Notes under the pieces: model-generated
Databases searched by the model: none
What the model was told of the DNA's origin: nothing
Seen by the model: the letters and a program-made list of their open reading frames with translations, nothing else
Virus record (IMG/VR): IMGVR_UViG_3300045988_122921
Source: a virus
Strand: one strand, 5' to 3'
Length of the DNA stretch: 38,017 bases
Made by a program: the position numbers and the translations under genes
Shown here: piece after piece, positions 5,983 to 37,508 of the stretch
Numbering within the stretch: the stretch's first letter is position 1
How the letters are laid out: each line of letters opens with the position of its first letter

Positions 5983-6219
5983 ATGAGAGTGGAAGTGGAT
6001 TCAATGCAAAGAATTGTCTTAATTGATAATCATTCACCTTATGGATCACTGATTTTTGAAAAGGATGCTATTAATAATCATGTTGCTGTTTACCAAGATA
6101 GCGAAGATGAAGAAGTTAGAACAGTATTCGAGAGTTTAGATGAAAGTGCTTATTTTAATCAACTTGAATTAATCAAAGGACTTCAAAAAGTTATTTCATT
6201 ACTGAAAGAAGGGGAATAA
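5983..6219 (+). CDS. Hypothetical acidic protein, 78 aa
   Basis: Track ORF with a TAGGAG RBS. Confidence 0.6.
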   Translation: MRVEVDSMQRIVLIDNHSPYGSLIFEKDAINNHVAVYQDSEDEEVRTVFESLDESAYFNQLELIKGLQKVISLLKEGE

Positions 6220-6897
6220 ATGAACGAGAACAGTGAAAATTTAAAAGAATTGTTTGATGGGATGTATAAGCTAAAAAGCAAATTAATTCAACCAAGATTT
6301 GACGCAGAAGTGGCCTACTCAACGAAAAAAGGTCCAATGAATTTCCAATATGCAACTCTAAAAGTGATTGAAGAAGCAATTAGAAAAGCTGCACAAGAAT
6401 CCGAAAGCGGAATTGATTTTCAACAAAATGTCGTCAATGAGAATAATGCGTTAAAAGTCACAACAATTATTACTCATGTTAGCGGTCAATATATAGTTCA
6501 TGGACCTTTTGAATTTCCAAACAGCGGGACAAATCCTCAAGGATTAGGAAGTTTAACGACATATGCAAGACGTTACTCGCTTTCGGCAGCGTTTGGAATT
6601 GCAGCAGATAAAGACGACGATGGCCAAACGGCAGCTGAAAAGAACAATGATACATCGAAAGTTAATTTGATTAGCGGTAAACAGTTAGCCACGTTAAACG
6701 ATCATATCAGACAACTTTCTGAGTTATCGAATTCTGAACTTGACTATGTGCGGAATGAACTAAGTAAAGAATTGAATGTTGATGTCAATGAAAACATGCC
6801 GTCTAGTATGTTCAATAAAGCTGTTGAAGTTCTGAAACAATGGATACAACAATTCCAGCCACAACCAGAAGAAAACATTACATGGGGGCAAAGCTAA
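6220..6897 (+). CDS. erf: ERF-family single-strand annealing recombinase
   Basis: QGLGSLTTYARRYSLSAAFGIAADKDDDGQ is the ERF signature. Located at the head of the recombination/replication module. Confidence 0.85.
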   Translation: MNENSENLKELFDGMYKLKSKLIQPRFDAEVAYSTKKGPMNFQYATLKVIEEAIRKAAQESESGIDFQQNVVNENNALKVTTIITHVSGQYIVHGPFEFPNSGTNPQGLGSLTTYARRYSLSAAFGIAADKDDDGQTAAEKNNDTSKVNLISGKQLATLNDHIRQLSELSNSELDYVRNELSKELNVDVNENMPSSMFNKAVEVLKQWIQQFQPQPEENITWGQS

Positions 6898-10702: not shown

Positions 10703-11443
10703 ATGATAGTATGGGCACTATTTGATAGTGGGAACGGATGTTATAAGCGTTCTGCACAAAAGTTTGAAGATATAGAAATATACAGCATAGGTTTGGATAT
10801 TGAAAATAAGAATGACCATTTTATTCATCTGAATTTAGCGGACTATTCTTATATGTTTAATGATAATAAATTATTCAAAGTTTTAGACAAATTACCAAAG
10901 CCAGATTTAATCATTGCAAGCCCACCATGTGAAAGCTGGTCAGTAGCTAGTGCAATGAAAAATGGTAATGCTTGTTGGAAAAGAGAAGATGTAACAGATA
11001 ATTTATTTGCACCACAGATATTACCAAGCCCGTTTACTATAAGAACCACAATAGATTACGAAGATACTAATTATGTTTATGAAAGGCAATTTTTAAAAAG
11101 AGTGAATGGAGAGTTAACGGTTTTTAATACTATAAAAATTATAAAAAAGTACCAACCAAAATATTTCATCATTGAGAACCCCGCTAGTGGCAAAATTTGG
11201 GAATATATCGAAGATGTCTTGAATTTTAAACTGCCATTTAAAAATTTAACCAGGTATAACAATTATGATTATCCATTACAGAAGCCCACGAAATTTGCTA
11301 GTAATATCCATTTGGGATTGAAAAATAAAGTTATTAAACAAGAAATTGCTTGGGGGAATTTTTCCAAAAGCTATAATGAACGATCAAATATTCCAGAAAA
11401 ATTAGTGGATGACATATTTAAAAAGGTTCTAGAGAAAAAATAA
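10703..11443 (+). CDS. Compact C5-cytosine DNA methyltransferase-like protein (246 aa)
   Basis: Motif I LFDSGNG, motif IV ASPPCESWS, motif VI IIENP, motif VIII-like YDYPLQKPTKF, motif X-like RSNIPEKL. The target-recognition region is very short. Confidence 0.7.
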   Translation: MIVWALFDSGNGCYKRSAQKFEDIEIYSIGLDIENKNDHFIHLNLADYSYMFNDNKLFKVLDKLPKPDLIIASPPCESWSVASAMKNGNACWKREDVTDNLFAPQILPSPFTIRTTIDYEDTNYVYERQFLKRVNGELTVFNTIKIIKKYQPKYFIIENPASGKIWEYIEDVLNFKLPFKNLTRYNNYDYPLQKPTKFASNIHLGLKNKVIKQEIAWGNFSKSYNERSNIPEKLVDDIFKKVLEKK

Positions 11444-16275: not shown

Positions 16276-16539
16276 ATGTTATTGCAAATTGATAAGTTTA
16301 ATAAAAAAGAATTAGAAGGTAAAGAAGCAGCGAAACTTTTAGTGGACTATATCGGAGGGGTTTCAGGGACTTCTTGTGATAGTGACGCAGTTAAAGTTTT
16401 TAACAATAGTAACCCGATTGTCATTACATTTGGCAAGGAGCAAACAACTGCAATTAACCTGCCATATTACGAAGATTTTAAAATTGTTGCAGTATGGCTC
16501 TTAAATGATGAAGGTAAAACACTTCGTAAATTAATATAA
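16276..16539 (+). CDS. Hypothetical protein, 87 aa (MLLQIDKFNKKELEGKEAAKLLVDYIGG...)
   Basis: ATG 16276 follows GAAAGGAAG. Protein-like composition. It is the only credible CDS inside the RNA island. Confidence 0.55.
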   Translation: MLLQIDKFNKKELEGKEAAKLLVDYIGGVSGTSCDSDAVKVFNNSNPIVITFGKEQTTAINLPYYEDFKIVAVWLLNDEGKTLRKLI

Positions 16540-16674: not shown

Positions 16675-16887
16675 AAAAAAATAAGAAATGCGACACACTT
16701 ACACAAATACATTAACGGAACGATTGCCTACTTATTTTTTTGATTTGAGATTACAAGGAAGTAAAAAAATCTACTTTCTTCGTTTAGTCACTTGTGATCT
16801 CATTTAGATTCTCTCGCAAACCACCAATTATAAAACTAAAGAAGTGAGGTGAATTTCCTCTCTCTTTTTTCTACAGGTTTGCGAGAG
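16675..16887 (+). ncRNA. Structured promoter-proximal RNA element, unit 2
   Basis: Shares AAGAAATG(C)GACACA(Y)TTACACAA, CTTTCT..GTTTAGTCAC, and GAAGTGAGGTGAAT..CCTC..TTTTTTCTACA.GTTTGC with unit 1. Extra nested helices at 16746-16754 with 16794-16802, and 16755-16763 with 16772-16780. A 12-bp outer helix (16811-16822 with 16876-16887). Confidence 0.5.
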
Positions 16888-16896
16888 TTAAGTTTA

Positions 16897-17026
16897 GTCA
16901 CTGTGGCGGAATAGGTAGACGCTCGTACGTGAGATTAGACATTGGAACAACGTATAAGTTCGTATGTAGGGCTTTGGCCCATCGGATAAATCTAATCATG
17001 CAAGGTGCAAATCCTTGCCAGTGACA
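16897..17026 (+). ncRNA. 130-nt tRNA-like RNA: Leu-type D-arm and perfect acceptor and T stems, with the anticodon arm replaced by a ~78-nt structured insert
   Basis: Acceptor GTCACTG/CAGTGAC (7 bp). TG, then GCGG-AATAGGTAG-ACGC as in class II tRNA-Leu. T arm GCAAGG-TGCAAAT-CCTTGC, where G occupies the normally U55 position. Central 7-bp helix GATTAGA/TCTAATC encloses hairpins. No canonical anticodon loop. Confidence 0.5.
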
Positions 17027-17146
17027 TAATCATTTTAGCCGTGAAAGTCTGCGAAAGCTACGTCCTGATGGGAAAACATTCTGACGAGAGTGTGTAAAGG
17101 TTAATTTGATTTATTAGCAATTGCTAGAAGGTAGCTCCTTCTGGTA

Positions 17147-17220
17147 TGGCGTGTAGCTCAATTGGTGAGAGCGGTTGATTTTTAATCAAGTACATGCAGG
17201 TTCGACTCCTGTCCCGCCAA
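17147..17220 (+). tRNA. tRNA-Lys (anticodon UUU), divergent phage copy
   Basis: Cloverleaf TGGCGTG-TA-GCTC-AATTGGTGA-GAGC-G-GTTGA-TTTTTAA-TCAAG-TACAT-GCAGG-TTCGACT-CCTGT-CCCGCCA-A. It has a 6:67 U/C mismatch, a 27:43 G/G mismatch, U32, and no encoded CCA. Confidence 0.75.
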
Positions 17221-17280
17221 TAAGTGGCAAAACCACTTAAATAAATTAGGAAACGTCAATAGATGTTTCTTTCCTTCACG

Positions 17281-17311
17281 AGAGGCATCCGCTTGCGGGA
17301 TGTCTCTTTTT
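17281..17311 (+). terminator. Rho-independent terminator closing the tRNA unit
   Basis: 10-bp stem AGAGGCATCC/GGATGTCTCT (one G-U) followed by TTTTT. Confidence 0.7.
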
Positions 17312-17317
17312 ACATAC

Positions 17318-17920: not shown

Positions 17921-18685
17921 ATGTCTAGAGCTAGAAATCCAAATAGAGAAAAGGCAAAACATCTTTGGTTAGAATCTGAAGGAACAAAGAAATTAAAAGA
18001 TATCGCAATTGAATTAGGTGTTACAGATTCCACTATTAGAAAATGGAAATCTCAAGATAAGTGGGACACTACAATGAAACGGAGCGCTCCGATTGAAACG
18101 GAACGTTACGATACGCTTAAAGGCAATAAAAATGCCCAAGGGAATAAAGGCGGTTCGCCCCCTAAGGGGAATAAGAACGCAGTTAAACACGGAATTTTTG
18201 CTAAGTGGATGCCGGAAGAGACAATAGAAATAATGGAGACCGTTTCCCAATCAGAACCGGCAGATATTCTTTGGAATAACATTATGATTCAATATACAGC
18301 CATTATCCGATCACAACAGATTATGTACGTCAATGATGTCGGAGATATCTCAAAAGAGGAGTCGGGTTGGTCATCTGGCGAAAGTGGAAGCAGTTCTACT
18401 ATGCAAGTTCAATACGCGTGGGATAAACAAGCTAACTTTTTAGCCGCCCAATCTCGAGCAATGGGAACACTATCAAATTTAATTAAACAATTTGTAGCTA
18501 TCGCAGACGAAGCCGATGAACGAAGAGCAAAATTAAGCTTGATAACTGCGAAGATGGAAAAAACACAAGCAGAAGCGAAAATACTTACGAATCAGGCCGA
18601 TAAGTTAACTGCTGGAGGCAAAGCGAACGAATTGTTAGAAGCTTTGCTCAACGTTAAATCACGAGGTGTGAACAATGACAATTAA
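17921..18685 (+). CDS. terS: Terminase small subunit
   Basis: N-terminal HTH (KLKDIAIELGVTDSTIRKWKSQDKW), located directly upstream of terL and overlapping it. Confidence 0.85.
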   Translation: MSRARNPNREKAKHLWLESEGTKKLKDIAIELGVTDSTIRKWKSQDKWDTTMKRSAPIETERYDTLKGNKNAQGNKGGSPPKGNKNAVKHGIFAKWMPEETIEIMETVSQSEPADILWNNIMIQYTAIIRSQQIMYVNDVGDISKEESGWSSGESGSSSTMQVQYAWDKQANFLAAQSRAMGTLSNLIKQFVAIADEADERRAKLSLITAKMEKTQAEAKILTNQADKLTAGGKANELLEALLNVKSRGVNNDN

Positions 18686-37434: not shown

Positions 37435-37508
37435 GGACCATTAGCTCAGTTGGTTAGAGCCAATCGCTCATAACGGTTAGGCCACAGGTTCGAGTCCTGT
37501 ATGGTCCA
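37435..37508 (+). tRNA. tRNA with CAU anticodon (elongator Met, or Ile2 if lysidine-modified)
   Basis: GGACCAT-TA-GCTC-AGTTGGTTA-GAGC-C-AATCG-CTCATAA-CGGTT-AGGCC-ACAGG-TTCGAGT-CCTGT-ATGGTCC-A is a canonical cloverleaf. It is not initiator-like (1:72 is paired, and there is no GGG/CCC anticodon stem). Confidence 0.9.

Follow-up and report, generated by a model that had tools for sequence, protein, structure and literature searches.

The element and its locus

The stretch of DNA analysed here, referred to as the window, comprises the 38,017 nucleotides (nt) of the IMG/VR virus record IMGVR_UViG_3300045988_122921, and our study concerns a 130-nt transfer RNA (tRNA)-like element encoded on its + strand at positions 16897-17026. 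The DNA flanking the element gave matches to Enterococcus phages only in a similarity search and, judging from its sequence, the window is a temperate Enterococcus phage genome or prophage. The element lies between the gene of an ArpU-family late regulator (arpU, ending at 16539) and that of the terminase small subunit (terS, starting at 17921). From arpU to terS the + strand carries a long hairpin, the element, a spacer, a tRNA-Lys(UUU) gene, two hairpins and a terminator-like hairpin, and no open reading frame of at least 40 amino acids overlaps the element. A first-pass annotation made from the sequence alone had described this RNA as the top half of a class II tRNA without an anticodon arm, an observation that our analysis confirmed. 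It had not noticed the large family with a swappable centre, the 13-base-pair (bp) acceptor/T helix or the sharing of the element between phages and plasmids, which are described below.

The element opens with the 5' strand of the acceptor stem, GTCACTG (16897-16903), which pairs perfectly with CAGTGAC at 17019-17025, and ends with the discriminator A at 17026; the CCA end is not encoded. The U8-G9 connector (T8 G9 at 16904-16905), read directly from the sequence, leads into a tRNA-Leu-type D arm, GCGG-AATAGGTAG-ACGC, with G18 and G19 (16906-16922). The stem of this arm is present in the minimum free energy (MFE) fold, and 15 of its 17 bases are identical to the D arm GCGGAATTGGTATACGC of a Schiekvirus phage tRNA-Leu(UAA). 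The T arm (17000-17018) consists of a 6-bp stem, GCAAGG/CCTTGC, and the loop UGCAAAU, with U54, G55, C56 and A58. Apart from the discriminator and the CCA end, these parts had been noted before, including the likeness of the D arm to tRNA-Leu and the G at T-loop position 55, and each was found as described. Since the 6-bp T stem abuts the 7-bp acceptor stem, both form a coaxial helix of 13 bp, in contrast with the canonical 12 bp; pair 3:70 is C-G.

Between the D and T arms, in place of the anticodon and variable arms, lies a central domain (16923-16999) that is swapped in the relatives of the element and that we call the cargo. Its length is 77 nt, one less than the approximately 78 nt first given. 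It starts with a 10-nt linker, followed by a 7-bp closing helix, GATTAGA/TCTAATC (16933-16939/16991-16997), which is found in both the MFE and the alignment folds. The small hairpins proposed inside this helix are uncertain, as the MFE and consensus folds disagree on them. A 5-bp stem closing a 7-nt loop with U33 and R37 was not found in the central domain, in agreement with the earlier claim that the anticodon arm is absent. The MFE fold of the whole element (-40.9 kcal/mol, z = -2.9 against shuffled sequences) contains the acceptor stem, the D and T arms and the closing helix.

A family with a swappable central domain

A sensitive BLAST search against phages recovered the same 26-nt 5' end and 27-nt 3' end in many Enterococcus phages, with entirely different middles. 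Scans with the 3' motif returned 52 viral and 25 metagenome stretches; in the species-representative genome collection they gave one chance-like match only, which suggests that the element is not a core-genome gene. We obtained in this way 80 instances with the phage-type chassis GTCACTG-TG-GCGGAATAGGTAGACGC...(C)AT-GCAAGG-TGCAAAT-CCTTGC-CAGTGAC. A scan with the D-arm motif added 70 further stretches, 54 of which share the architecture with different acceptor stems (TAGGCTG, TCATCTG, GTCGCTG, ATCGCTG) and T stems (GTGAGG, GTCGGG, GAGTGG and others), and contributed centre classes for elements of 87, 103, 122, 147 and 158 nt. The window copy and 134 further instances have in common a 7-bp acceptor stem, T8, a GCGG...ACGC D arm, a variable centre, an abutting 6-bp T stem and a UGCRAWY loop; T at position 8 occurs in every extracted member, as the extraction rules demanded.

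The 54 members recovered through the D arm all have the 7+6 helix and the TGC loop and receive no ARAGORN call. By contrast, the seven real tRNA-Leu genes found in the same scan are all called and carry a TTCGAT loop, with a 7+5 helix in the six that were scored explicitly for it. By these sequence features, the family stands sharply apart from its parent tRNA-Leu.

At least 17 unrelated classes of central domain can be distinguished, with lengths of 3 to ~225 nt, and the element measures accordingly 51-53 ('empty'), 87, 91, 95, 103, 108, 114/115, 117-122, 123, 128, 129 (two kinds), 137, 147, 158, 159, 204 or 276 nt. Within the phage-chassis set of 80 the size classes are 51-53 ('empty'), 91, 108, 114/115, 123, 128, 129 (two unrelated kinds), 137, 159, 204 and 276 nt. 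A comparison of 14 classes gave three shared 7-mers, each in three classes, and no shared 8-mer, and nine cargo classes searched against the phage collection had no matches beyond their own loci. Regarding possible antisense targets within the window, the longest complementary run was 18, compared with 15-19 in shuffled sequences. The discriminator is A in 74 of the 80 relatives and U or G in the other six, and the next base is always T.

The 'empty' elements of 51-53 nt (36 of the 80 instances) have a shortened D loop without GG and a centre of 3-5 nt. At their loci, about 21 nt upstream of G1 (for instance at positions 6307-6327 of locus L006), there is a stretch, TTGCTGGTG, similar to the 5' strand of the plasmid-type acceptor (GTTGCTGTGG). 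With a one-base shift and with G.U pairs it could form a helix with the 3' strand, and it is possibly left over from a previous recombination.

Covariation and selection at the RNA level

Among 21 distinct variants of the acceptor and T arms, 98.2% of the cells are standard pairs, and in 8 of the 13 acceptor/T pairs both partners have changed (45 cells). In 500 column shuffles the observed value was reached on no measure, and sliding the partner by 1-3 columns lowered the pairing to 28-47%. Acceptor pairs 1:72, 2:71, 3:70 and 4:69 covary, as do four of the six T-stem pairs, and the UGC of the T loop is invariant in the 21 variants. We also found G.U intermediates (GCGAGG/CCTTGC, GTAAGG/CCTTGC and the hybrid acceptor GTTGCTG/CAGTGAC of locus L030), which are in keeping with an RNA read from this strand and speak against a DNA site.

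Compensatory changes also occur in the cargo. The 114- and 115-nt classes have many differences, and two helices are kept between them by compensation (ATACC/GGTAT to ATATC/GATAT; GAGC/GCTC to GGGC/GCCC); both also retain the 14-nt single-stranded stretch CAAATTAGGGTAGN (N = G/A). Two 137-nt variants differ at eight positions, four of which constitute two compensatory pairs in the closing helix. The element is a conserved RNA structure and not a decaying pseudogene. The earlier suggestion of a degenerate tRNA does not hold, as the element is 98-99% conserved on three unrelated element backbones and its helices covary.

Comparison with known RNA classes

Two of the computational checks proposed in the first-pass annotation were carried out, those with ARAGORN and Rfam. 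ARAGORN, in default and intron modes, found no tRNA in the element, and at an 80% threshold gave an inconsistent call starting at base 24. Rfam gave no match on 16897-17026 at gathering scores or at E<=10, for tRNA, tmRNA, YrlA, GOLLD, introns and ribozymes. When nine related loci and the plasmid module were included no family was assigned either; the 114-nt class alone grazes the Rfam tRNA model (RF00005), with 29.8 bits just over its gathering threshold of 29 bits. Together with the negative hairpin search, these results dispose of the concern that a standard or intron-containing tRNA had been mis-folded. For an intron-containing tRNA in particular, no anticodon-stem halves were found around the insert, ARAGORN -i was negative, no Rfam intron family matched and there are relatives with only 3-5 nt at that position.

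The window copy shares with canonical tRNAs the 7-bp acceptor stem, U8, a D arm with G18 and G19, and U54, C56 and A58 of the T loop, but it has a 7+6 helix of 13 bp and U54-G55-C56 where they have a 7+5 helix of 12 bp and U54-U55-C56. Its closest likeness is to bacterial and phage class II tRNA-Leu, with which it has in common the discriminator A, the near-identical D arm and a CCA end that is not encoded (as in the neighbouring tRNA); it differs from them in the absence of anticodon and variable arms, in G55 instead of U55, in its sub-threshold Rfam score and in not being called by ARAGORN. Like tmRNA (SsrA), the element is a tRNA-like top half with a large insert in place of the anticodon arm. 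However, it lacks G3.U70, a tag reading frame and a series of pseudoknots, its Leu-type D stem is intact, the tmRNA mode of ARAGORN was negative at a relaxed threshold and no Rfam tmRNA match was found on it.

Bacterial Y RNA-like RNAs of the YrlA type are also non-coding RNAs with a tRNA-mimicking module, and YrlA also occurs in phage tRNA clusters. Their arrangement is permuted, since the ends of YrlA form the Ro-binding stem and its acceptor-like stem is closed, whereas the ends of the element form the acceptor stem. The sole YrlA (RF02553) match in this region of the window is weak (18.8 bits, gathering 69) and lies at 17102-17206, on the spacer and tRNA-Lys and off the element. The first-pass annotation had also considered a tRNA nested in a larger RNA such as GOLLD. 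This reading was not sustained. GOLLD and ROOL are RNAs of 500-800 nt that enclose a tRNA, and neither has an Rfam match anywhere in the window; moreover, in related phages the element occurs with the spacer and tRNA missing.

The T loop brings to mind the staphylococcal non-proteogenic tRNAGly species, in which TGC or TGT for TTC, with no pseudouridine 55 possible, marks molecules kept out of ribosomal translation (PMC7826273). Those tRNAs differ in having an ordinary anticodon arm and a 7+5 helix, in being chromosomally encoded and in their function in cell-wall synthesis. In Rfam 15 and the searched literature we found no natural bacterial family with exchangeable inserts at the anticodon position, and no description of this element family in the searchable full-text literature. 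The locus is unannotated in nearly all the matched GenBank phage records; one lists a hypothetical protein beneath the match. From these comparisons the element is apparently a variant of tRNA-like non-coding RNA belonging to an undescribed family. In terms of design principle, it can be likened to the 'tRNA scaffold' engineered for RNA expression and to herpesvirus tRNA-linked small RNAs, which keep the tRNA parts read during maturation and carry another RNA in or beside them for processing and stability; the former is man-made and the latter are eukaryotic.

Sharing between phages and plasmids

The window-type element (129-nt class) is also present in lytic Herelleviridae, namely Schiekvirus vB_Edu_21C1, phage 113, phiSHEF16 and ZJGS2 (98-99% identity), and on the conjugative E. 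faecalis plasmid NZ_CP138650 (97.7%). When the copies of the window, vB_Edu_21C1 and NZ_CP138650 were aligned with 40 nt of flanks, identity started within 2 nt of G1 and stopped within 4 nt of the discriminator, the flanks being unrelated. The copy on NZ_CP138650 has the D arm, cargo and T arm of the window within the acceptor stem ATCGCTG/CAGCGAT, which involves two compensatory pairs, and the same stem belongs to a second, different family member located 77 nt upstream on that plasmid. A window-type interior within the plasmid's own acceptor stem suggests that recombination inside the conserved chassis brought about the exchange. Another class, of 204 nt, is common to lytic EFDG1-type phages and the temperate phage VEsP-1, and the module is present, at least in part, on 227 Enterococcus plasmids.

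The genomic contexts are diverse. In lytic phages the element sits inside a tRNA array. In EFDG1 and vB_Edu_21C1 it begins 2 nt after a phage tmRNA gene, in EFP01 1-2 nt after a weak tRNA-like gene of 37.6 bits, and in the metagenomic contigs L072 and L077 1-2 nt after a tRNA-Tyr or tRNA-Ser. The tmRNA of the Schiekviruses EFDG1 (L002, 2653-3000) and vB_Edu_21C1 (L004, 2653-3000) is complete, with 140.6 bits in Rfam and the tag AKNEELLAVA. The 158-nt class occurs in the tRNA cluster of uncultured viral contigs of 42-61 kb without a close GenBank relative. In temperate phages a tRNA follows the element at a fixed 121-122 nt, and some of these phages precisely lack both spacer and tRNA.

Plasmids of the pAD1/pTEF-like pheromone type have two sites. 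In one of them the module is flanked by sea1, a surface-exclusion gene, and the DUF5406-asa1 genes, and in the other it lies downstream of traE, next to Lar-type restriction-alleviation genes. Lar-family genes were located at 1421-1888 of L090 and 1771-2292 of L091 (E. faecalis conjugative plasmids), a few hundred bases upstream of copies of the element, and a DUF5406 gene is regularly found 3' of the plasmid module. The neighbouring proteins had no common or informative family (DUF5406, PHROGs without known function). We considered a link to PrgU and the pCF10 'IGR' and discarded it, as the PrgU target lies between prgQ and prgR and pCF10 has no copy of the element in its first 20 kb (through prgB-prgC).

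Layout of the putative RNA operon

Directly 5' of the element there is a long hairpin (16811-16887, + strand; fold z = -4.2) with a 12-bp outer helix, TCTCTCGCAAACC/GGTTTGCGAGAG, and counterparts of it also precede the element in EG-TP1 and in 'empty' versions. On the 3' side follows a conserved structured spacer (17027-17146, + strand; fold z = -3.2), whose length is fixed in many temperate phages. It ends, just before tRNA-Lys, in the hairpin CTAGAAGG-TAGC-TCCTTCTGG (17124-17143, + strand), which covaries between relatives; GGAGG..CCTCC and AGAGGG..CCCTC alternate there between phages and plasmids and the U-N-G-C loop is kept. Some loci have alternative spacers with a helix GAGATTG...CAATCTC and variable content. 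A resemblance of the spacer to a hammerhead was noticed and had no support in Rfam.

The downstream partner, tRNA-Lys(UUU) (17147-17220, + strand), was called by ARAGORN and scores 58.3 bits on the Rfam tRNA model. Beyond it, at 17221-17312 (+ strand; fold -35.1 kcal/mol, z = -7.1), come two hairpins and a third one that resembles an intrinsic terminator and has a U-run, the strong hairpin and U-run being at ~17280-17312. This terminator-like structure is predicted to close a putative RNA operon. The earlier statement that element and tRNA-Lys belong to the same transcription unit is thus plausible, given that they lie on the same strand, with no terminator-like feature seen between them in a scan or in the spacer fold and a hairpin and U-run after the tRNA; transcription itself is a prediction.

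In the partner tRNA (window 17147-17220, loci L006-L083) the acceptor TGGCGTG/CACGCCA and the following A are constant, and the body and anticodon vary among otherwise similar phages. The forms observed were Lys(UUU), Glu(UUC), which has the same body with two base changes, an 'Arg(UCG/ACG)' with a poorly paired anticodon stem, a variant with an 8-nt loop (GATTTTTTAATC), Ile(AAU), and forms with no anticodon arm (among others in L016 and on plasmids). In this sense, the partner tRNA gene may also be a cassette locus. The only other tRNA gene that ARAGORN found in the whole window is a tRNA-Met(CAU) near its end (37435-37508; 65.7 bits in Rfam).

Proposed role and alternative explanations

The locus encodes a conserved, strand-specific RNA structure, which belongs to a family, exchanges its cargo and has no decoding features. 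We consider, with a probability of about 0.6, that the element encodes a stable tRNA-like RNA which does not decode, descends from a class II (leucine-type) tRNA and couples host tRNA maturation to a swappable cargo. RNase P, RNase Z and the CCA-adding enzyme recognise the acceptor/T helix and the elbow, and not the anticodon arm. The parts that these enzymes read are kept in the element, CCA is not encoded and a U follows the discriminator, so tRNA-like excision, maturation and stability are to be expected. We infer from this how the RNA would be processed and stabilised, and what its biological role may be, as follows. The chassis would comprise the acceptor stem, U8-G9, the Leu-type D arm, the 6-bp T stem, the UGCRAWY loop and the discriminator, without an encoded CCA. 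The RNA would be transcribed together with the neighbouring tRNA and excised by the host tRNA-maturation enzymes, CCA being probably added. It would be excluded from translation by the missing anticodon, by G55 and by an acceptor/T helix of 13 bp instead of 12 bp, and would present the cargo domain, the tRNA-like top half or both to host factors. The same chassis would serve temperate and lytic phages and conjugative plasmids, and the cargos would be traded by recombination inside it.

The likeliest role is the manipulation of host tRNA-directed factors, or protection from them, during infection or transfer, that is, in a conflict between host and mobile element; it is suggested by the hypervariable cargo, by the occurrence in both phages and plasmids and by the tRNAs and anti-restriction genes found nearby. 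More tentatively, enterococcal and gut mobile elements may run a natural 'tRNA-scaffold cassette' system, in which the chassis hijacks RNase P, RNase Z, CCA addition and possibly leucyl-tRNA synthetase (LeuRS), and RNA effector domains are traded as counter-defence or host-takeover factors in an arms race.

Several observations weigh against the interpretation of the element as a cargo-bearing RNA. The 'empty' form of 51-53 nt, which also lacks G18 G19, is the commonest in temperate Enterococcus phages, and therefore the cargo is not essential to the function of the chassis. The UGC T loop is weakened as a mark of a non-decoding RNA because the same lytic phages have a tRNA-Tyr-like gene of decoding type in which this loop also occurs. 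This class II gene of 81 nt resembles tRNA-Tyr(GUA), has G55 in its T loop (UGCAAYU) and was found at 5530-5610 of L002, 4889-4969 of L003 and 3550-3630 of L014; it was missed by ARAGORN and is just below the Rfam threshold, with 27.7 bits. As for the covariation, acceptor pairs 5-7, together with part of the T or D arm, were constant by design in both search motifs, so the invariance of these parts, and of the D arm, is partly a matter of ascertainment. The cargo covariation comes from only two or three sequences per class and is equalled by 50 of 500 and 108 of 500 shuffles, the cargo class of the window has no informative variation and varies only in one small hairpin, and the high identity within a cargo class may come from recent transfer and not from selection. 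Leucylation is also doubtful. According to the leucine identity rules of E. coli, LeuRS requires neither the anticodon nor the variable arm (PMC9976931), and the E. coli identity elements A73, A15-U48, G18 G19, U54:A58 and G19-C56 are all readable in the window copy. However, the G18:U55 pair is lost with G55, six of 80 relatives have a discriminator other than A, and the 'empty' forms lack G18 G19. Because the discriminator varies and G55 replaces a U55 that is relevant to LeuRS, leucylation appears possible for the window copy and is not, from the sequences, a family trait.

A different explanation may be that the element is purely a processing signal ('tRNA punctuation'), in which the top half recruits RNase P and RNase Z to cut long transcripts of phages or plasmids, or the adjacent spacer and tRNA, at set positions, and the centre is neutral filler. 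Conservation is indeed confined to the parts read by these enzymes, with centres of 3 to ~225 nt, 'empty' versions are common and U is invariable after the discriminator; furthermore, the plasmid module stands between sea1 and DUF5406-asa1 in a pheromone-induced operon, and the temperate phage copies between arpU and terS. Nevertheless, lytic phages put the element in arrays of real tRNAs, which supply such cuts already, the cargo has helices with compensatory changes and conserved loops, and specific cargos have spread among unrelated elements, so that we regard this explanation as unlikely. We would give somewhat less credit to a decoy or sponge, whose top half would titrate a host tRNA-binding protein (a tRNA-targeting defence nuclease, a nucleotidyltransferase toxin or LeuRS) and protect the translation of the mobile element. 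The presence of the element in both phages and plasmids, the Lar-type genes adjoining plasmid copies and the A73 and Leu-type D loop kept in the window copy would fit a decoy, and so would the partner tRNA at fixed spacing, which varies among Lys(UUU), Glu(UUC) and Arg-like identities, these being typical targets of anticodon nucleases. On the other hand, no cargo contains an anticodon-loop mimic, which makes classical anticodon nucleases improbable as targets; we identified no defence or partner protein linked to the element, and the association with anti-restriction genes concerns a few plasmids only.

The remaining explanations have little to recommend them. A degenerate, functionless tRNA pseudogene would account for the absent anticodon arm and for an element that no tRNA finder or Rfam model calls; it is very improbable in view of the 98-99% identity on unrelated backbones with unrelated flanks, the strong covariation of the acceptor/T helix, and the 13-bp helix and UGC loop that are consistent over more than 130 instances. 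We find it harder still to credit a decoding tRNA with an intron or an unusual anticodon domain. The inserts of 150-225 nt in some relatives are near the size of a small group I intron and the 114-nt class reaches 29.8 bits on the tRNA model, but ARAGORN in intron mode was negative for all classes, no Rfam intron matched, the inserts have no flanking anticodon-stem halves and the 'empty' versions have 3-5 nt there. No more credible is a site acting as DNA, for attachment, packaging or recombination, as could be proposed from the position of the element upstream of terS, near the record ends in several phage genomes, and at mosaic junctions. The G.U wobble intermediates preserve pairing on this strand only, the spacing of the half-sites ranges from 37 to 262 bp, and the element is also present inside tRNA arrays and plasmid operons. 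The non-decoding tRNA-like RNA with a swappable cargo is therefore the reading that we prefer.

tRNA-like non-coding RNAs are known, and their functions in phages are mostly an open question. The present family is compact and easily recognised by clear defining features, is absent from Rfam 15 and is shared in near-identical form by temperate phages, lytic Enterococcus phages of the type used in therapy and pheromone-responsive conjugative plasmids. Its interchangeable centre constitutes a ready experimental handle. If the cargos were effectors, the family would represent nature's equivalent of the engineered tRNA scaffold and add RNA-based weapons of a new class to the conflicts between mobile elements and hosts; if it were only a processing signal, it would still bear on the annotation of phage tRNA clusters and plasmid operons.

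Other RNA genes in the related loci

Some further observations were made in the loci that carry the element. In Schiekvirus tRNA clusters there are weak YrlA matches of 28-34 bits, below the gathering score (6005-6112 and 4576-4676 of L002; 4723-4823 of L003), which suggests that these clusters contain further tRNA-like non-coding RNAs. In L099, of the 158-nt-class group, ARAGORN reported beside the element a long 'tRNA-Ile(UAU)' of 90 nt (1718-1807) and a 'tRNA-Arg(ACG)' of 89 nt (2255-2343), which may be atypical tRNA-like genes. Additionally, the viral contig L008 has on its - strand, at 10778-10957, an Rfam match of 143 bits to rli28, a Listeria small RNA, ~235 nt downstream of the module, with RatA/BsrG-type matches nearby.

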